Assembly (NCBI GenBank): GCA_021162815.1
Contig: JAGGXW010000003.1
Location: 3,542 to 67,541 of the forward strand
Direction: 5' to 3'
DNA: 64,000 nucleotides
DNA from: Thermoplasmata archaeon
Lineage (GTDB): Archaea > Thermoplasmatota > E2 > UBA202 > JdFR-43
The notes under the pieces are model-generated. The model saw only the letters and a program-made list of their open reading frames with translations, did not search any database and had not been told where the DNA came from. Shown here one piece after another: positions 29,343-38,486 of this stretch (the first letter of the stretch is position 1; each line of letters starts with the position of its first letter). A program made the translations under genes and the position numbers.

Positions 29343-30725
29343 TTAATCACCTTTCATCACAGAACTTGCCATCTTTATAGCGCTGGGAATCGCCCTTCTG
29401 AATATGAAGCCCTTTCTTAAGATTAAATCTTTGATGAGATACAACGGGCGTATGTAGAAGGATATATATGCTTTCTGCAACAGTTTTGTTATTTGCTGGG
29501 AGGTGAAGTTTTTGAGTTTCATCACAGGATCCAAGGTTGTGTATTTTCTCCAGTTGAAACTCAGTATGAGGTTTTTCGATAAAGAATAATTCCACAATCT
29601 TGTTCCGGGATAGGGAGTGGCTATAGTGAACTGTGCATAATCCACTCCCACCCTTTTTGAAAATTTAATGGTTTTCTTTATATCTTTCTTTGTTTCATCA
29701 GGGAATCCAATAATGAATGCTCCTAAAGCACGGAGTTTATATTTTTTTGCTTTCTTAACTGCAGCAAGCGATTGCTCCGGTGTTATTCTTTTACCTATAA
29801 AATCCAGAGTACGTTTAGAACCGGATTCAATGCCAAAATACACGGTATGACATCCACCCCTTTTAAGAGATTGGGCAATTTCTTCATTAAAAAGATCAAC
29901 TCTGGAAGAGGCTGTCCACGAAATATCAAGTCCTTCCTCCACAATTCTTTTTGTTATCCTTATCGCTCTTGGTCTGTTAAGAGTAAAGGTATCATCTAAA
30001 AACTCTATTTCATGAATCCTGTATTTTTCATGAAGGTATTTCAATTCTTCAATTACCCTTGAATCGCTGTGCCCGCGCCACCTCTTTCCAAATTGAAGAG
30101 AAGAAGAGCAGAATGCGCAATTAAACGGGCATCCTCTGCTCGTCATTACAGTTCCAAATCTGACTCCATCTACCTGATATTTTTCCATTGGAAGTAAATC
30201 GTAGGAGGGCATGGGAATTGTATCAACATCCTTTATAAGAGGGCGCGGAGGATTATTCTTTATTTTACCGCCCATATTTATGCTTAACCCCAAAATATTT
30301 GAGACATCTCTATTTTTTTCTAAGGCATCAATAAGCTGTTTGAATGTTATTTCTCCTTCTCCCCTCACTATAAAATCTATGCATGGACATTCTTTGAATG
30401 TTTTTTCGGGAACAAATGTTACATGCGGTCCTCCTATTACGATTTTCACATTTTCATTATGTTTTTTTGCCATTTTTGCGACAGTATATGCATCAGGAAT
30501 CATGGATGTGGTTGAGGTGATACCAATAACATCGGGGTCATAACTCCTTATTATTCTATCAACATCCTCGTATGTATAATCTTCTGCCAGAGAATCAACT
30601 ATGTGAATATCATGTCCATCTCTCACCATGGAAGCCAGATATGCCAAACCGAGAGGTGGACCTGTTGTTCCGACAATTGCTTTAATTGCACTTATAGTTG
30701 GGGGAGAGAGTAGCAGAATTTTCAT
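29343..30725 (-). CDS. B12-binding domain / radical SAM protein (class B radical SAM)
   Basis: N-terminal cobalamin-binding Rossmann-like domain and the radical SAM motif RGCPFNCAFCSS. Confidence 0.8.
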   Translation of the reverse strand: MKILLLSPPTISAIKAIVGTTGPPLGLAYLASMVRDGHDIHIVDSLAEDYTYEDVDRIIRSYDPDVIGITSTTSMIPDAYTVAKMAKKHNENVKIVIGGPHVTFVPEKTFKECPCIDFIVRGEGEITFKQLIDALEKNRDVSNILGLSINMGGKIKNNPPRPLIKDVDTIPMPSYDLLPMEKYQVDGVRFGTVMTSRGCPFNCAFCSSSLQFGKRWRGHSDSRVIEELKYLHEKYRIHEIEFLDDTFTLNRPRAIRITKRIVEEGLDISWTASSRVDLFNEEIAQSLKRGGCHTVYFGIESGSKRTLDFIGKRITPEQSLAAVKKAKKYKLRALGAFIIGFPDETKKDIKKTIKFSKRVGVDYAQFTIATPYPGTRLWNYSLSKNLILSFNWRKYTTLDPVMKLKNFTSQQITKLLQKAYISFYIRPLYLIKDLILRKGFIFRRAIPSAIKMASSVMKGD

Positions 30726-32309
30726 TTAGCTCACCTCTATTTTTTCTATCTTTATATCCATCGGTTCCAGGGGCTTATCAACATCAACACCTTTCCTGAT
30801 TGCCCATTTTCTTATGCTTTGAACAATCAATCTTGAACCGAACTTTGCAAGTGGCATGAATACCAGTAAATTTGGATTCCCTTTAGTTACTCTCTTTAAA
30901 CCGTGGTCTACCTCCCATGCGAGATGTCTCCATGCATGATAAATATGCAGAATTCTTCCTTTGGTAAGATGCTCCTCAACATTAAAGAATTCCTTCTCCT
31001 TCAAACTGGCCATGGGAACAAAACCCAATGGAGTTACAGAGAAATGTGCTTTCTCACCCAGTTTTTCATATAATTTATTCTCCATTGTAACAATCAGCCT
31101 TGCTGTATCTATCTCATCTTCATCTGTCTCCCAGGGCAGGCCAACTATAGTTGTATATGCCGGAAACCAGTAGAATTTATTGAATGCGTATGTTCCGTTT
31201 AGCAGAACCCAGGGCCATTCATCAGCGCTGAATGGTTTCATCTTGTTGTTTGCTATCTTTTTTATCAACTCTGGAGAGGCTGTCTCAAACCCAACCTGGA
31301 TGCCAATCCATTTATTCAAATTTGCGTGGTCCAGCTCAGCAACCCTTTTAAGTATCCGTGGCGCAGCAAGAGCGCCTGCCACAGTGCCATGAGTGGGATT
31401 TGCGAAATCAGCTTTACTTAAAACCTCTTCAAATAAATTGATTACAGCATCTTCATTTGGATAAAAATTTCTCCTGTCCTCTACCATATAATTAAATATG
31501 TCCTCGCTGTGCAACCATGCCGTCCTCTGCCCGGCACCCAGATTTATATCCACTTCTTTCAATATTTTTTCTAAAGGATAAAATCTTGCCCTTCTCAAAT
31601 TTGGAGAACAAAATCTGCACCCTCTGCCACATCCACGCATAACCTCTATCATTCCTTTATAGGTGGGATTTACAACTGTGGGAATATCCTCAATCTTTGG
31701 CCAGTTTTTAATCTTTATAAAATTATCTGCTCCTTCATTTTCTATATCTCTGAAAATATCTCCTATGACGTGCTCGGTTTCTCCCCATATTACATGGTCT
31801 ATGCCTAACTCTTCCGTCAGATCCTGCTTCAATTCAAACTGCCATCCCGCCTGGCTTCCAACAACTATCTTGAATTTATATCCCTTTCTTTCTCTGTAAT
31901 CCCTTAATCTTCTTATAAAGGAAGTAAAAAGATATTTTGAATAGGATGTTTTCTTACCTCCCTCAGTAAACATTAAAGTTACGGGCCCCAAACCATAAGG
32001 GTCCATTGTGTTCACTCCAACTATCGTTGTTTTCTCATCTATAAATTTTTCAATCTTTTTTGGATGAGCGACTATGATATCCTCTCTCTTAAAGCCATCT
32101 TTTATAAGTGCTGCCTCCACCTTTCTTATTGCATATGGGGCCTGGATTAACATACCCCCCCTGTCTGGAAGCTGGGTGTCCAGAATTTTGTATATAAACT
32201 TTGGCACAGTTTCAACGGGTGCACATGGTAAAAAATCGAGAAGAGGTATATTCCTAAATGTGGATGTCAAGCTTGGGTCAGAGGTTAGGACTATTCTCAT
32301 TCTAATCAC
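30726..32309 (-). CDS. B12-binding-like domain / radical SAM protein (second paralog)
   Basis: A ~220-aa N-terminal Rossmann-like domain, then MRGCGRGCRFCSP. Its stop directly abuts the downstream gene. Confidence 0.7.
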   Translation of the reverse strand: MIRMRIVLTSDPSLTSTFRNIPLLDFLPCAPVETVPKFIYKILDTQLPDRGGMLIQAPYAIRKVEAALIKDGFKREDIIVAHPKKIEKFIDEKTTIVGVNTMDPYGLGPVTLMFTEGGKKTSYSKYLFTSFIRRLRDYRERKGYKFKIVVGSQAGWQFELKQDLTEELGIDHVIWGETEHVIGDIFRDIENEGADNFIKIKNWPKIEDIPTVVNPTYKGMIEVMRGCGRGCRFCSPNLRRARFYPLEKILKEVDINLGAGQRTAWLHSEDIFNYMVEDRRNFYPNEDAVINLFEEVLSKADFANPTHGTVAGALAAPRILKRVAELDHANLNKWIGIQVGFETASPELIKKIANNKMKPFSADEWPWVLLNGTYAFNKFYWFPAYTTIVGLPWETDEDEIDTARLIVTMENKLYEKLGEKAHFSVTPLGFVPMASLKEKEFFNVEEHLTKGRILHIYHAWRHLAWEVDHGLKRVTKGNPNLLVFMPLAKFGSRLIVQSIRKWAIRKGVDVDKPLEPMDIKIEKIEVS

Positions 32310-33787
32310 TTATCTGGAAGAGTTTGAGTTATCTTTTTCCACTCTTTTTCCATTATTATACATCCCGGATCTGGAGAAAGAATATCTCCGTAATAGGCAT
32401 ATGCCCTTGCCCTGCATCCTCCGCAAACATATCTGAATGAGCAGGTGTGGCACGCGTAATTTTCTGCATCTCTGTCTCTCAATTTGTTGAATACTTCACT
32501 GTTTTTCCATACATTTGTAAATCCATCTTTTAGAACATTACCTACTTTTATTGGAAGGAATACACACGGTTGGATATCTCCATTATGCTCTATTGAACAG
32601 TAAATTCTTCCTGCTCCGCATCCTCCAATGAATTCTGTTAAAGCCTTGGCGGCGCCACCAAATTCTGCAGGTATTTCCATTTCAGCAAAATGAGTTGGTG
32701 ATACCTTATCTCCTGTGCCTTTATCCATTGCAGTTATTGATATTCTTGCATATGCAGGACATGTGGAAAAAATCTGCATTTTTCCTTTTTCCCATTCATC
32801 ATATAAATACTTCATAAGTTTTTCTCTTTCAATGGGGCTGAGATCTTCTTTCACTATCTCCTTTCCTCTCCCGGTTGGTATGAAATTGAAAACAATAAAT
32901 CTATCCACCATTAACTTTCTGGCAAGCTCTATCATTTCTGGGAGGATATCCAGATTATAGTGAGTTATGGTGGTGGCTATACCTGTGGATAAACCGGCAT
33001 CTCTTGCATTTTTTATACCCCTTACTGCCCTCTCAAATGCATTCTTAACTCCTCTAAACTCATCATGAATTTCAGAATTCGGGCCATCCAAGCTAACTTC
33101 AACATATCTTATTCCAGTCTCCTTCAATCTTTTTGCAATATTCTCTGTTATCAGTGTCCCATTTGTCGCAATCGAAATATAAAATCCTTTTGAAGCGGCG
33201 TATTCTGCAACTTTCCAGAAATCTTTATTCATCAACGGCTCTCCTCCTGAGAAAGATATTGCTGCCACACCTGCCTCATCCAGTTGGTCAACAACATTTA
33301 ATTTTTCTTCTAAAGTAAGTTCATCAGGTGCCGGATATGGCGTTGCATTGGCGTAGCAATGCTTGCATTTGAGATTGCATTGCTTTGTAAAATCCCATAC
33401 AACCATAAAAGGGGCAATTAATCTCTGGGGTTTTGTAATCCCGTATTCGGCAATACTCCTTATTACTACTGCAAAACCTTTTCTCATATAGGGATCTTTA
33501 AGAAATTTTTTAATTGCATCTGGTTCTGCACCAAATTTTTCAGCACCTTTTTCAAGTGTACTTCCTACAATCTTGGCATGAAGACCTTCTCTAACATCTT
33601 CTGGCTCTTCAACACCTGCATATATCGCAAATGATTTCTCCAATTTTTTCACTTCGGTCATTTTTTTCAGAATGAAATTTATAAATTTATGATCCATAAT
33701 TTTGTGGAGATATTCTATGATCTCCCCTTCATTCATGTTATTTTTCATGTTATTTTTCTCACTCATTGCTACCCACCTCTTCATCAA
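32306..33787 (-). CDS. Radical SAM protein with C-terminal SPASM/twitch-type auxiliary cluster domain
   Basis: CNLKCKHC (Cx3Cx2C) about 130 aa from the N-terminus. C-terminal Cys-rich region CGAGRIYCS ... CHTCSFRYVCGGCRARAY. Confidence 0.8.
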   Translation of the reverse strand: MMKRWVAMSEKNNMKNNMNEGEIIEYLHKIMDHKFINFILKKMTEVKKLEKSFAIYAGVEEPEDVREGLHAKIVGSTLEKGAEKFGAEPDAIKKFLKDPYMRKGFAVVIRSIAEYGITKPQRLIAPFMVVWDFTKQCNLKCKHCYANATPYPAPDELTLEEKLNVVDQLDEAGVAAISFSGGEPLMNKDFWKVAEYAASKGFYISIATNGTLITENIAKRLKETGIRYVEVSLDGPNSEIHDEFRGVKNAFERAVRGIKNARDAGLSTGIATTITHYNLDILPEMIELARKLMVDRFIVFNFIPTGRGKEIVKEDLSPIEREKLMKYLYDEWEKGKMQIFSTCPAYARISITAMDKGTGDKVSPTHFAEMEIPAEFGGAAKALTEFIGGCGAGRIYCSIEHNGDIQPCVFLPIKVGNVLKDGFTNVWKNSEVFNKLRDRDAENYACHTCSFRYVCGGCRARAYAYYGDILSPDPGCIIMEKEWKKITQTLPDK

Positions 33788-34199
33788 TCTTTCCCAGATA
33801 TCTCAAACCATCTTCTATATGCTTAATTAATTCTCTATATTTATCTTTTTTATTTTCAAGAGATTCCCTCGCCTCGGTAAGAAATTTTATGACTCTTCTT
33901 CTTTCATTAGTTATTATTTTTACAAAATCAATAACTGCTCTGTAAGCGTAACATTTGCCCTTTTTATCTCTCTCTACAAGTTCATACCTCCTTAAATGAT
34001 TTAGAGCATTGACCACAGAACTATATGCATAGTCTATTTCTTGAGATATCTCCTTAGCACTCATGGGGGTGTTTTTAATTGCAAGTAAGGCGTATATTGT
34101 TGCTTCAATATCTCCCAAACCCCAGTGTGCCATTACTTTTTTTAAAGTGCGAAATGCTGCATGGTTTATAATATTTCTCATGTATTTGAGATATATCAT
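33759..34199 (-). CDS. Winged helix-turn-helix transcriptional regulator
   Basis: MSAKEISQEIDYAYSSVVNALNHLRRYELVERDKKGKCYAYRAV gives an HTH plus wing pattern. Overlaps the start of the radical SAM gene. Confidence 0.55.
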   Translation of the reverse strand: MIYLKYMRNIINHAAFRTLKKVMAHWGLGDIEATIYALLAIKNTPMSAKEISQEIDYAYSSVVNALNHLRRYELVERDKKGKCYAYRAVIDFVKIITNERRRVIKFLTEARESLENKKDKYRELIKHIEDGLRYLGKIDEEVGSNE

Positions 34200-34470
34200 A
34201 ATGATATATAAATATTCCTCCTATTTTTAACCAGCTCTTCATTATATTTTCTTTACCCCTTCCAAAGAATGGAAAAAAGAAAAGAATAAAATTTGCTATT
34301 CGTTCAACAAAGCAGTTATATGTATAACTCAGGCATCATCAAAACAAAATGAACAAATTTATTCATCATCACACATTCATTTTCATTTGATTTTTCATCT
34401 GTTAAATTAAACTTTAACGGGGTTAAAATTCTTTTTAGGTAGTGTTTATTTATATGCCTAATTTTAAGGT
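34200..34470. promoter_or_regulatory. Divergent intergenic region between the wHTH/radical-SAM operon and the LuxE-like/transglutaminase-like pair
   Basis: 271-nt AT-rich spacer. GGAGG sits 17 nt before the regulator ATG. Confidence 0.3.
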
Positions 34471-35832
34471 TTGATGCAGAATAATGATTATCTACCGAAG
34501 TTCAATAAGTATGCGAAAGATTATGTCCCGCATGTTAATACTCCAGTGGAGAAGGCAGTTTATGAGCCAAAGAGCTTTTTCAGCATTCCCGACAGGGAGG
34601 CAAATGAGTACAAATTCAAGGCAATAAAGTATGCATTCAAACATCATTATGAGAACAATTCATTTTACAGGCAGATGTGCAAGGAGAAGGGTGTGACTCC
34701 AGATGATATAAAGAGTATAGATGATTTTGTTAAGATTCCTCTTGTGCCTCATGAATTTTTTAAAGGTTATCCATCCGGCAAGGAATTTGCCATGTGGCTT
34801 GTTAGCATAATGAGCATTGACCCTCCAAAAATAGTTGTTAAGGGTAAAAATCCAACATATGATGATGTTATCTCAGCCTTTGCAGATGCCGGCATAGTTG
34901 TTGCATACAGCAGCGGAACGACGGGCAGATTCACATTCATACCCAGAGATGAGAACACATACAAGATGGCGGAATATTCCATAGGAAAGAGTGCCATTGA
35001 CATGCTCCAGCACTGGTGGGATTATGATACCTATGCATATCTTCTATTCCCCGATCCCAGAACAACAAACATATATGTGGGAAAGGTTACAAGAATTCTC
35101 TTTGATGTTGTGAAGGATACGAGAGTTGCTATTGAAACGAAAATAACCACAGACCTGCTCCGCATTTCCATGGGAAACGTTAGAAATCTGAAGGAAAAGA
35201 TGTTGAGCAAGCTCATAGCAAGCAAAATGAAGAAGATGAATGACCAGATGGTAAATAAGATAATAAAATGGGCTGATGAAAGGAATAAGAACAAAGACAG
35301 GATATTCTTTGCAGGCGCTCCCTTCATACTCAACATGGTCATGGAAAAGATGGATGAGGATGGCATTCGGTATGATTTTGGAGAAAGAGGAGCGATACTC
35401 ACGGGCGGCGGCTGGAAGACGCAGGAGGACAAAAGATTGCCTGTTGAGGAGTTCAGAAAGAAGGTGGAGGAGTTTTTCGGCATACCTCCTGAGAATACTC
35501 TTGACTTATATGCCATGGTGGAGGGAAATGGATTCATTGTTCACTGTCCGGAGAGCCATTATCTGCATATTCCAAAAACATATTATCATCCCATTGTGCT
35601 TGATGAGAATGATGAGCCTGTAGCTCCAGGAGAGGAGGGCAGGTTTGCATTCCTTGATGCTATTCCAAAAAGTTATCCTGGTTTCATAAAGACGGGAGAT
35701 AAAGTGAAGCTTATCGATAGCTGCGATTGCGGAAGAGAGGGTTATGTTCTTGAGCCTGAGGTTAGCAGAATAAGGGGCGAGGAAATAAGAGGTTGTGCTG
35801 AGGAAATGAGAAGAATTTTGAGAGAGGGATAA
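34471..35832 (+). CDS. Adenylate-forming enzyme, LuxE acyl-protein synthetase / PaaK-like family
   Basis: AMP-binding motifs AYSSGTTGRFTFIP and ILTGGGWK. Overall length and pattern resemble LuxE/F390-synthetase-like enzymes. Confidence 0.6.
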   Translation: MMQNNDYLPKFNKYAKDYVPHVNTPVEKAVYEPKSFFSIPDREANEYKFKAIKYAFKHHYENNSFYRQMCKEKGVTPDDIKSIDDFVKIPLVPHEFFKGYPSGKEFAMWLVSIMSIDPPKIVVKGKNPTYDDVISAFADAGIVVAYSSGTTGRFTFIPRDENTYKMAEYSIGKSAIDMLQHWWDYDTYAYLLFPDPRTTNIYVGKVTRILFDVVKDTRVAIETKITTDLLRISMGNVRNLKEKMLSKLIASKMKKMNDQMVNKIIKWADERNKNKDRIFFAGAPFILNMVMEKMDEDGIRYDFGERGAILTGGGWKTQEDKRLPVEEFRKKVEEFFGIPPENTLDLYAMVEGNGFIVHCPESHYLHIPKTYYHPIVLDENDEPVAPGEEGRFAFLDAIPKSYPGFIKTGDKVKLIDSCDCGREGYVLEPEVSRIRGEEIRGCAEEMRRILREG

Positions 35833-35834
35833 AA

Positions 35835-36812
35835 ATGAGGAAGTTAAGAGAGATAAGGGAGAAGGGCCACATCATGCCCTGGAGAATGTTTAAGGTGACC
35901 ATGCGCGCCTTGCCACCACTGGTAAAGGCAATGGTAAAGCATCCTGTAATGATAATCAAGAGCAACATGAATGCAAAGAAAATGATGGCAGAGATGAAAT
36001 ATGAGCTGCCATATGAAATACCCGTGTATAAACCAGGTATGCCCTACTGCAAATCAAATAAGAGGTATCTCAGGCCAACCCATCTATGCAATCCTCATGC
36101 ACCTGAGATAGTAGCCCTTGCCAACGAACTTGGAGCATTCCAGCTTGATGATTATGAATATGCGGAGAATGTTTTCAACTTTGTCAAAAACAACATAAAA
36201 CTTGCATTTGTCGGGCTGGATAGAGAGGTGGATACTTTGAGAAGAGGAGCCGGAACATGCGTTCATCAGCTTTCATTGCTTATTGCACTTCTCAGAGCAG
36301 GATGTGTTCCAGCAAGATACAGGCTATACAGTCTTGCCGTGGTTGAATCTCTTTATGAAAATGAGGTGAAAGCATCTGAAGTGGTTAGAGAATGGTATGA
36401 TGCGATGGGGGCCTTCATGCTTCATGGCACTGGAGAGGTTTACATAGATGGTGAGTGGCTTACGGCTGACCCAACATTCACGCCAGCCTACGAAGCAGCC
36501 ATGGGATTGCCACTTGCAAAGTTTGGCGAGGATCCTGTTGGCGTGTGGAACTTCCCGGTTGAGGGAACAGTAATGAGACTGGAAGGTCTGCCTTATGGGG
36601 CTGGAGCAGCATGGAACATCCTTGCAAATTTCATTGCAAAGGGAGAGAGGCTTAAGATAGACATGAGTATGGAGAGGGCAAGGGAGGAAGGAAGAAGGAT
36701 ACTTGAAGAGATGGGAATGGAAGCATATGATGAGATGGTTAGGAGGAAATATAAGGCAAAGATACCAAAAATAACCCTGGAAAAATCTCCACAGCTTGTA
36801 TTCGTAGATTAA
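35835..36812 (+). CDS. Transglutaminase-like cysteine protease superfamily protein
   Basis: Core motif GAGTCVHQLSLLIALLRAGCVPARY with downstream His/Asp candidates. Translationally coupled to the upstream gene by a 2-nt gap. Confidence 0.6.
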   Translation: MRKLREIREKGHIMPWRMFKVTMRALPPLVKAMVKHPVMIIKSNMNAKKMMAEMKYELPYEIPVYKPGMPYCKSNKRYLRPTHLCNPHAPEIVALANELGAFQLDDYEYAENVFNFVKNNIKLAFVGLDREVDTLRRGAGTCVHQLSLLIALLRAGCVPARYRLYSLAVVESLYENEVKASEVVREWYDAMGAFMLHGTGEVYIDGEWLTADPTFTPAYEAAMGLPLAKFGEDPVGVWNFPVEGTVMRLEGLPYGAGAAWNILANFIAKGERLKIDMSMERAREEGRRILEEMGMEAYDEMVRRKYKAKIPKITLEKSPQLVFVD

Positions 36813-36872
36813 GGAAAGCCGAACAAAACGTATTTAAATTTATTCCCTTTTCCTATTTGGAGGTAAATAAAA

Positions 36873-38486
36873 ATGAAATCTAAAATGCTGGCAGTATTTG
36901 TGGTTGCTGCAATGCTTGCAGCGGGTTTTGTTTCTGCAATTAACATGCAGATAGAGAAGAAAGAAATAAGAATAACAGGTGTGGCATCAGGCAATAGCTT
37001 GAGTGTTGCAGTGCACAAAATAAAGCCAATGAATCTTGCCATGGAAGGAAAGGAGATAAAGAATGCATTTCATCCTGTGGCAAGAACCACGGATATACCT
37101 GTAGGAAATCAAGAAACGACGGAGATGCATCCTACCGTTGCTACAGATGGCAAGGTTTATTTTGCGGGATATACAAATTCAGAGGATATTCTCACACAGG
37201 ATATATATATGGCATATTCTCCAGATGGAACAAACTGGCAGCCAACAGGGTACTGGAACATAGATGGAGTTGAGGATTATCCATCCTTTGATTACTGGGG
37301 AAATGGAAAGTATTACGGAACATTCCAGCCTGATCCAAGCACTTCCTATCAGTATCTCATGAACGCATCTGACATAACTGATCCAAGCACATACAGTCTT
37401 GTTTACTGGGACTGGAGCAGCTATGGATGGTATGATTTTAAAGAGCCTGCCATAGCATGTGACGGCAGCCAGAATCCATGGGAATATGGATTTATAGCAA
37501 CAATAGCATCAACAACCTACACTGGTTATGAATGCACAAATGCTCCTCATATGTTCTTTGCAGACCCGGAGGATTCAAATAGAGGTTATATAAGCTGGTA
37601 TAACACATACAATAACACAATGCACTGCGATGTGGATATTGATACCTCAACTCATATGGGTTACGCAGTTTATGACTGGCTCAATGAAAGCAGCAGCAAG
37701 TGGACAATCCTTATCTGGGAGAGAAGCTTTGAAGATCCTTTAAATGGAGACAGCACAGTTATTGAACTGAACAGTCAGCACAATGACCAGGTTCCATCTG
37801 TTGGAGCGGCAGGTGGATATGTTTACATAGCATGCCAGGAGGATTATAATATACCCGGTAAGAATGACATAGTTTGCTATTACAGCCATGATGGTGGCGT
37901 CACCTGGGAGGAGAGCGTTATAGCAGGAGATCCTGCAAAGGATGAGATGTATCCAAAGATTATTGCCTATGGCGACAGCGCAGCCTGCATATATCTCATG
38001 GATGGTGATGTGTACTATTCATTTACCACAGATGGAGGAGCAACATGGAGCGAGCCTGAGAAGGTAAATGATAATGCTGGCTCTGTTGTAATGGAATACA
38101 GGTCTGCAATGCTTGCCAAGGGTGGAGCCGTAATGTGGACAGATAATCAGGCAGGAAATTATGACGTGTATTATGACAATGTTGGAGTGCCATCAGCTCT
38201 GATTACCATAGAGGGCATAAAGGGAGGATTTGGAGTAAGTGCAACCATAAAGAACATTGGAGGAGCAGCTGGAAAGAGCATACCATGGAGCATAAAGTTT
38301 GATGGACTTGTTTTCCTAAACAAGGAGAAGAGTGGAACAGTTGATATAGCTCCTGGAGAGGAGAAGACAATCAGCACAGGATTTGCCCTTGGAATAGGCC
38401 CTGTCACAGTAACAGTAACAGCAGGAAGTGATACAGCAACTGCCAAAGGATTCATGCTTGGTCCCCTTGTGCTGGGACTCAAGTAA
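36873..38486 (+). CDS. Secreted BNR-repeat (sialidase-like beta-propeller) protein with C-terminal CARDB-like domain
   Basis: Signal peptide. BNR motifs YSHDGGVTWEES and FTTDGGATWSEP. C-terminal beta-sandwich pattern. Confidence 0.6.
   Translation: MKSKMLAVFVVAAMLAAGFVSAINMQIEKKEIRITGVASGNSLSVAVHKIKPMNLAMEGKEIKNAFHPVARTTDIPVGNQETTEMHPTVATDGKVYFAGYTNSEDILTQDIYMAYSPDGTNWQPTGYWNIDGVEDYPSFDYWGNGKYYGTFQPDPSTSYQYLMNASDITDPSTYSLVYWDWSSYGWYDFKEPAIACDGSQNPWEYGFIATIASTTYTGYECTNAPHMFFADPEDSNRGYISWYNTYNNTMHCDVDIDTSTHMGYAVYDWLNESSSKWTILIWERSFEDPLNGDSTVIELNSQHNDQVPSVGAAGGYVYIACQEDYNIPGKNDIVCYYSHDGGVTWEESVIAGDPAKDEMYPKIIAYGDSAACIYLMDGDVYYSFTTDGGATWSEPEKVNDNAGSVVMEYRSAMLAKGGAVMWTDNQAGNYDVYYDNVGVPSALITIEGIKGGFGVSATIKNIGGAAGKSIPWSIKFDGLVFLNKEKSGTVDIAPGEEKTISTGFALGIGPVTVTVTAGSDTATAKGFMLGPLVLGLK

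Follow-up and report, generated by a model that had tools for sequence, protein, structure and literature searches.

A LuxE-type acyl-protein synthetase and a transglutaminase-fold protein form a conserved gene pair in Thermoplasmatota: a candidate acyl relay

A stretch of 64,000 nucleotides (nt) from a Thermoplasmata archaeon (assembly GCA_021162815.1, contig JAGGXW010000003.1, positions 3,542 to 67,541 of the forward strand; hereafter the window) carries two adjacent genes, the first encoding a LuxE-like adenylating protein and the second a protein with a transglutaminase-like (TG-like) core. Judged by its recurrence in related genomes, this LuxE-TG pair is a conserved, undescribed cassette. 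Each family is known separately, LuxE as a Pfam family and the second protein as part of the transglutaminase-like superfamily; the combination of a LuxE-type activator with a transglutaminase-fold partner is new. An initial annotation of the window had proposed a functional pair of an activating enzyme and a Cys-His-Asp enzyme and had not recognised it as a described pairing. This core of the proposal stands, as full-text literature searches found no description of the LuxE-TG-like pairing, while the genomic context it invoked, a neighbouring radical SAM (rSAM) trio and a secreted BNR protein, finds no support. In public databases these proteins are labelled 'hypothetical', 'PaaK-like' or 'transglutaminase family protein'. 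We propose, with a probability of about 0.5, that the two proteins would constitute an ATP-driven acyl relay operating without coenzyme A (CoA) or a carrier protein.

The first protein is assigned to the LuxE-type acyl-protein synthetases because it matches the LuxE family, retains the conserved Lys, Arg and Cys residues and carries a short tail where related enzymes have a subdomain. It scores 95 bits against Pfam LuxE (PF04443; gathering score 24.9), its best match among Protein Data Bank (PDB) sequences is LuxE (7xc6_E, 1.2e-23) with PaaK-type ligases matching weakly, and it is 100% identical to P0001, a public protein from a Thermoplasmata metagenome-assembled genome (MAG). In LuxE, the C-terminal subdomain found in adenylate-forming (ANL) enzymes is replaced by a tail of ~20 residues with the motif TRxxKGCxLS; its Lys238 and Arg355 serve adenylation and then CoA-independent thioesterification onto Cys364, Lys238 being essential for both reactions, and the mobile tail then presents the bound acyl group to LuxC, which accepts it on its active-site cysteine (PMC9157457). 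The corresponding residues of the window protein (Table 1) are K316, R433 and C442. These three and G441 show no variation among 69 homologues or among 69 locus-derived sequences, and each of the 20 distant relatives inspected keeps the [KR]GC tail. Model confidence is low over this tail, consistent with a mobile arm.

Two closer identifications of this protein were rejected. It is not a LuxE orthologue of the lux fatty acid reductase, as it reaches 96.3 bits against the LuxE equivalog NF052244 (NCBIfam), whose cut-off is 550, and no LuxC was found among the scanned window neighbours, the TG-like gene lying downstream instead. Nor is it PaaK or the ordinary phenylacetate-CoA ligase with a full CoA domain that the initial annotation had weighed against its own reading: scores against the two PaaK models are 52.9 and 40.2 bits (cut-offs 700 and 646), and the C-terminal subdomain is missing. 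With PaaK (2y27, 4r1l) the protein shares the N-terminal microdomain, the CxCGR region and the large-domain fold, for which Foldseek gives a TM-score of ~0.58 (PaaK1; 2y27, 4r1l type); unlike PaaK, it has no C-terminal subdomain of ~100 residues and carries the LuxE Cys tail in its place. Only 29 residues follow CxCGR, compared with 116 in the CoA ligase BT_0428. With the subdomain missing and the scores far under the cut-offs, automated 'PaaK-like' labels on these archaeal proteins are misleading.

The second protein scores 38.8 bits against Transglut_core (PF01841; gathering score 23). The Cys-His-Asp core noted in the initial annotation is intact as C142-H197-D212, and conservation of these three residues marks the protein as a predicted active-type enzyme. 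Foldseek matches of its core, of ~145 residues, include 3isr, a putative cysteine protease (2e-5), as well as TglA and the animal transglutaminases TG2, TG3 and FXIII; arylamine N-acyltransferases (NATs; 7qi3, 4guz, 2pfr) are among the weaker neighbours (E ~0.03). 'Cysteine protease' is on this evidence to be read as a fold label. The helices that flank the core, at the N-terminus (residues 2-53) and the C-terminus (258-317), are peculiar to this subfamily and matched no known structure. A group of 23 TG-like paralogues keeps Cys142 and has the His and acid positions swapped (H197 to E, D212 to H; 'FMLEGEGE...VAHVGP'), as if the catalytic residues had migrated during evolution; the swapped copies (L036, L041, L047, L048, L050-L055, L058-L062, L064-L067, L071, L075, L076, L078) mostly precede the c5/c6 membrane proteins or a major facilitator superfamily (MFS) transporter. 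The copy in the window has the canonical arrangement.

Conservation of the pair was assessed in both directions. A LuxE-like profile run against one genome per GTDB species gave 258 relatives, of which the best 80 loci were used for locus counts; all are from Thermoplasmata or Thermoplasmatota MAGs, 16 of which contribute two loci apiece. Three of the 80 end at a contig edge before the downstream slot is readable, and a TG-like open reading frame (ORF) lies directly 3' of the LuxE-like gene in 75 of the remaining 77. In the reverse test, a TG-like alignment was used as a profile against metagenome contigs, and loci with 300 nt or more of upstream sequence, 46 in all, were kept; a LuxE-like gene stands directly 5' on the same strand in 44 of these. 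The two families, whose co-occurrence elsewhere the initial annotation had singled out for checking, thus occur together almost without exception in both samples. Spacing is tight in the relatives too, ranging from -8 to +33 nt. Both genes are real and not chance ORFs, since homologues are numerous (more than 1000 for the LuxE-like protein and 62 for the TG-like protein in a word-indexed search) and the structure models are of high confidence (predicted local distance difference test, pLDDT, 89.6 and 94.2, respectively).

The pair, moreover, has duplicated and diverged as a unit, because distances within the two families correlate (r=0.79; 0 of 999 Mantel permutations as high) and LuxE clade 1, to which the window protein belongs, maps onto TG clade 1 in 23 of 23 cases. 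One locus (L148, 3626-8313) holds a tandem LuxE-TG-LuxE-TG array; in its first TG copy the catalytic His is gone and Glu stands where Asp would be, so that this copy may be degenerate or regulatory. The flanking genes vary by clade (SerRS, Mut7-C and an AsnC-type regulator; AsxRS and PFK; secreted peptidases; transporters), and the two-gene unit is the sole constant among them. An apparent TG fusion at L042, made up of a truncated TG core and an ORF for a papain C1 peptidase, is probably an artefact. A defence system was also considered and rejected, as the LuxE-like, TG-like and BNR ORFs have no PADLOC match.

The strongest argument for the TG-like protein as acyl recipient comes from more distant LuxE-like lineages, since LuxC, the established thiol acceptor for acyl-LuxE, fills the same slot in sister clades. 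Nine deep lineages were sampled from the results of a profile search that covered 1.84 billion representatives exhaustively. Five have a TG-like neighbour: it lies directly downstream in four (P0201, P0210, P0221, P0333), and in the fifth (P0195) it is rearranged and divergent, with 31% identity over 263 amino acids (aa) that include the subfamily-specific C-terminal region. Three have LuxC (PF05893) directly downstream (P0399, P0225, P0249), and in the remaining one the contig ends at the neighbour slot. In a rough neighbour-joining tree, all TG-paired proteins group as one clade, to which the LuxC-paired proteins do not belong. By analogy with LuxC, the TG-like protein would receive the acyl group from its LuxE-like partner. 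Three loci in non-lux settings (L145, 6001-9013; L153, 5001-7864; L157, 5001-7867) have a LuxE-like gene of 425-445 aa followed by LuxC, with TetR, nitroreductase, ferredoxin-like or acetyltransferase genes as neighbours; they look like self-contained reductase pairs that would take an acid to the aldehyde.

These observations have led us to propose a model in four steps: (i) the LuxE-type enzyme would convert an acid and ATP to acyl-AMP, using its P-loop, K316 and R433; (ii) the acyl group would pass to the enzyme's own Cys442 on the mobile tail, as it passes to Cys364 in LuxE; (iii) by trans-thioesterification the tail would pass its acyl group on to Cys142 in the TG-like protein, mirroring transfer from LuxE to the LuxC cysteine; and (iv) a nucleophile, most likely an amine, would resolve acyl-Cys142 to give an N-acyl (amide) product, completing a ping-pong cycle. 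Adenylation and loading of Cys442 are predicted from family membership and the conserved catalytic set, whereas the hand-off from Cys442 to Cys142 and the amide outcome are drawn from analogy. NAT and transglutaminase enzymes work via acyl-cysteine intermediates. In CtaG, AsbE and BtrH, a thioester-bound acyl group moves onto the cysteine of a Cys-His-Asp triad and then to amines by a ping-pong route (PMC12865890). Neither a carrier protein nor a precursor peptide was found among the conserved neighbour clusters, nor a carrier among the window neighbours; the part of the swinging arm would therefore fall to the cysteine in the LuxE tail. More tentatively, the pair may represent a widespread archaeal amide-forming system, an ancient sister of LuxE-LuxC with at least two specialised copies per Thermoplasmatota genome, in which the LuxE tail Cys replaces the phosphopantetheine arm and feeds a TG ligase, and which might make N-acyl metabolites from imported compounds or acylate proteins.

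The genes next to related copies of the pair bear on the possible substrate. Directly following them are a polytopic membrane protein and a large surface protein (~20 loci), an MFS transporter or an NMT1-type ATP-binding cassette (ABC) importer; because transporters adjoin these copies, an imported small molecule is suggested as substrate or acceptor. The polytopic protein, c5, which follows the pair in one paralogue class (for example L053, 9459-14264, and L158, 2538-5798), is unclassified and ~490 aa long, with an NRAMP-like N-terminal motif that reads GQGQ for DPGN, and has no match in Pfam or among PDB sequences; it is followed by a signal-peptide protein of ~1090 aa with CarboxypepD_reg-like repeats and C-terminal transmembrane segments. 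At L154 (676-8340), three tandem LuxE-like genes and one TG-like gene precede an NMT1-type importer (binding protein, permease and ATPase), and at L144 (3809-9044) a LuxE-like gene lies inside an NMT1-type importer operon with the TG-like gene divergent. In a single case (L155, 2875-7302), UbiA prenyltransferase and polyprenyl synthase genes stand directly upstream of the pair and co-directional with it, hinting at an isoprenoid-linked substrate.

Several observations weigh against the acyl relay. The structural matches of the TG-like protein span its ~145-residue core alone, with TM-scores of at most 0.33. The pairing has exceptions, with TG absent downstream of the LuxE-like gene at L068 and L072 and LuxE absent at the TG loci L127 and L142. 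No natural LuxE-TG fusion was present among the best 150 matches of the exhaustive profile search, the longest of which is 548 aa, and no transporter adjoins the window copy. The comparison with CtaG-type enzymes is one of analogy only, as the TG-like protein had no such match among PDB sequences or within the top 50 Foldseek matches. Finally, the transglutaminase fold includes hydrolases (proteases, amidases, PNGase), so the TG-like protein may hydrolyse instead of transfer.

This last point underlies the first of the alternatives, in which the TG-like protein is a cysteine hydrolase that either cleaves an imported amide or peptide conjugate, the acid so released being activated by the LuxE-like protein for a partner encoded elsewhere, or hydrolyses and edits acyl-Cys442. 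Its closest structural match, 3isr, bears the annotation of a putative cysteine protease, and a protease function is assumed for many Transglut_core proteins. The transporters by related copies fit the catabolism of imported conjugates, and such Thermoplasmata are described as protein degraders (PMC9123169). Release from a LuxE-type enzyme, however, needs a thiol or other nucleophile partner (PMC9157457), and the TG-like protein is the only conserved one, with no alternative acceptor among the conserved neighbours. Breaking a thioester made at the cost of ATP would be futile, and LuxC, a true acceptor, holds the same slot in sister clades. We consider a hydrolase unlikely.

A split acyl-CoA synthetase is a poorer prospect. 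Here the TG-like protein, acting as a NAT in reverse, would move the acyl group from Cys442 or Cys142 to CoA or another thiol of low molecular weight, and the product of the pair would be an acyl-thioester metabolite. NATs exchange acyl groups between CoA and cysteine and are structural neighbours of the TG-like protein, the LuxE-like protein lacks the ANL subdomain that normally thioesterifies CoA, and some sources annotate LuxE-like proteins as PaaK-like; but those NAT matches are weak, CoA-binding features were not identified, and two proteins are less parsimonious than a one-protein CoA ligase when true PaaK-type ligases occur in the same lineages (PMC10581246).

Slightly harder still to credit is a pathway shared with the divergent operon of a winged helix-turn-helix (wHTH) regulator and rSAM genes, for example in peptide, cofactor or lipid maturation. 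In the window the two units have the 271-nt spacer in common, and wHTH and SPASM rSAM genes are found near TG in three arrangements: the window, L009 (6166-8018) and L127 (4987-6965), where TG, wHTH and rSAM are co-directional and LuxE-like is absent. These make up only 3 of ~145 loci; beside the window they are 1 of the 80 genome loci and one solo-TG metagenome locus. When all window neighbours were compared by BLAST with 143 related loci, neither the 527-aa rSAM nor the B12-rSAM recurred with the pair (0 loci). The orthologue class usually adjoins SerRS, Mut7-C, an AsnC-type regulator and a different B12-rSAM (~30% identity, DUF4070) lying ~1 kb 3' of the pair, and other paralogue classes have unrelated neighbours. 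The wHTH-controlled rSAM trio offered as context in the initial annotation was accordingly rejected as a conserved partner, homologous SPASM rSAM and wHTH genes being found at L009 and L127 only; we regard this as a minor recurrence outside the system. The model for heme b synthase gives the SPASM rSAM 319 bits (cut-off 500), and the B12-rSAM resembles BchE, HpnJ and ApyD at 245 bits, under those cut-offs. Chance adjacency of unrelated genes is effectively refuted by the comparative data: the genes are adjacent in 75/77 and 44/46 loci at the tight spacing given above and are co-duplicated, and the pairing survives deep divergence, rearrangement and many flanking contexts.

The coordinates of the pair, its motifs and its neighbours are collected in Table 1. 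The two ORFs with the motifs and the 2-nt gap given in the initial annotation were recovered at the same positions, as was the 271-nt divergent spacer. The LuxE-like ORF opens TTG-ATG; since the public protein P0001 has 452 aa, the true start is probably the ATG at 34474, which would give a product of that length. Neither protein has a membrane-like segment or signal peptide, and both are predicted to be soluble and cytoplasmic; the surface protein or lipid that the initial annotation named as a possible target is a conjecture. In the spacer, a TATA-like sequence (TTTATTTATAT, 34445-34455) lies ~20 nt 5' of the LuxE-like start codon, a distance that suggests a near-leaderless archaeal transcript. 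The 271-nt spacer contains no Rfam riboswitch, only sub-threshold snoRNA-like matches, and a scan of it for bacterial-type promoters and terminators gave nothing over shuffled expectation. The C/D-box snoRNA-like matches, on the minus strand at 34320-34376, reach 22.8 bits (gathering score 39, E ~0.7) and include two TGATGA boxes and one CTGA with atypical C'-to-D spacing; the signal is probably due to chance. Other neighbours in the window include aIF5B and XPD genes.

Table 1. Positions of the LuxE-TG pair, its conserved motifs and the flanking genes in the window
Feature	Position	Strand	Remarks
LuxE-like gene	34471-35832	+	453 aa from TTG; PF04443
TG-like gene	35835-36812	+	325 aa; PF01841
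Junction GAGGGA-TAA-AA-ATG	35820-35837	+	2-nt gap; purine-rich stretch within the end of the LuxE-like gene
Divergent spacer, AT-rich	34200-34470	.	271 nt; separates the wHTH gene from the LuxE-like gene
Adenylation P-loop AYSSGTTGRFTF	34903-34938	+	LuxE-like residues 145-156; S147, S148, G149, T150 and G152 invariant
ILTGGGWK	35395-35418	+	LuxE-like residues 309-316; K316 aligns with LuxE Lys238
C-terminal tail	35767-35829	+	LuxE-like residues 433-453; R433 aligns with LuxE Arg355
C442 in RGCAEEMRR	35794-35796	+	Aligns with acyl-accepting LuxE Cys364
Signature YLRPTHLC	36066-36089	+	N-terminal to the TG-like core; Y78, L79 and R80 invariant, C85 nearly so; subfamily-specific
GTCVHQLSLLIALLRAGCVPARY	36252-36320	+	TG-like residues 140-162; holds the catalytic Cys
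Catalytic Cys142 (GTC)	36258-36260	+	Invariant in all TG-like partners examined
Catalytic His197 (MLHG)	36423-36425	+	Conserved
Catalytic Asp212 (TADPTF)	36468-36470	+	Conserved
Four-gene operon: wHTH, SPASM rSAM, poorly matched rSAM, B12-rSAM	29343-34199	-	Divergent from the LuxE-like gene
wHTH (TrmB-like) overlapping AhbD/NirJ-like SPASM rSAM	32306-34199	-	rSAM with N-terminal extension of ~125 residues
Two further rSAM genes	29343-32309	-	527-aa marginal Radical_SAM (35 bits) and B12-rSAM
Secreted protein ORF	36873-38486		Signal-peptide-like N-terminus (KD19 maximum 2.52); BNR_2 29.4 bits (gathering score 31.4)

Downstream of the pair, the initial annotation had placed a secreted BNR protein. 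A signal-peptide-like N-terminus is consistent with secretion, while the BNR assignment falls below the Pfam cut-off and the gene is not a conserved partner. In the region 36813-38486 its ATG is preceded by a separate TATA-like sequence, TTTAAAT, and by GGAGGT, and because of these signals it is probably transcribed separately from the pair. Homologues lie by the pair at L004 (67% identity) and, upstream on the opposite strand, at L014 and L094 (46-49%). The BNR protein was rejected as a target of the pair, given that it is adjacent in L004 only, is oppositely oriented at the L014 and L094 loci, and has TATA-like and Shine-Dalgarno-like signals of its own.

Comparison with characterised systems places the pair between two kinds of enzymology: by analogy it would be LuxE-LuxC-like up to the hand-off and like a CtaG- or NAT-type ligase after it. 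With LuxE-LuxC (PMC9157457) it shares the Pfam family, the P-loop, the TGGGWK Lys, the Arg, the tail Cys and the missing ANL subdomain; CoA-independent chemistry is expected in both, and in both the downstream gene encodes a protein with an active-site cysteine. The partner differs, being a Cys-His-Asp protein of transglutaminase fold and not the NADPH-dependent, aldehyde-dehydrogenase-like LuxC, and amide formation is expected here where LuxC reduces to the aldehyde. The window protein is also ~80 residues longer than LuxE, archaeal and outside a lux operon.

NAT-family amide synthases such as RifF carry out a comparable acyl transfer to amines. The proposed transfer from thioester to amine at a Cys-His-Asp site, with an adenylating enzyme loading the donor, also resembles CtaG, AsbE and BtrH, in which, unlike here, the donor is held on the phosphopantetheine of a carrier protein and not on a LuxE-type tail Cys (PMC12865890). 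Another combination of a carboxylate activator with a TG-like protein, likewise predicted to perform amide chemistry, is the ATP-grasp/alpha-E/TG-like/Anbu operon, a conserved neighbourhood in prokaryotes (Iyer et al. 2009, as cited in PMC6376114). That operon is bacterial, has another TG subfamily context and would proceed through an ATP-grasp acyl-phosphate, whereas an ANL/LuxE acyl-adenylate and thioester are expected here. Neither the genes around the pair in the window nor the conserved neighbour clusters include ATP-grasp, alpha-E or Anbu genes.

If the acyl relay is correct, the pair would provide a minimal two-protein route to amides without CoA, a carrier protein or condensation domains of the nonribosomal peptide synthetase type, of interest for enzymology and biocatalysis. 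A function would then be available for a large set of genes that are now hypothetical or mis-annotated, amounting to more than 1000 clusters at 90% identity and 258 stretches in species-representative genomes. Labelling of these proteins as PaaK could distort metabolic reconstructions, for example by inferred phenylacetate degradation, in Thermoplasmatota, which are abundant uncultured sediment archaea. For the family as a whole, the exchange of LuxC for a TG-like partner in the same slot would make LuxE a general acyl-loading module whose output is set by its partner.

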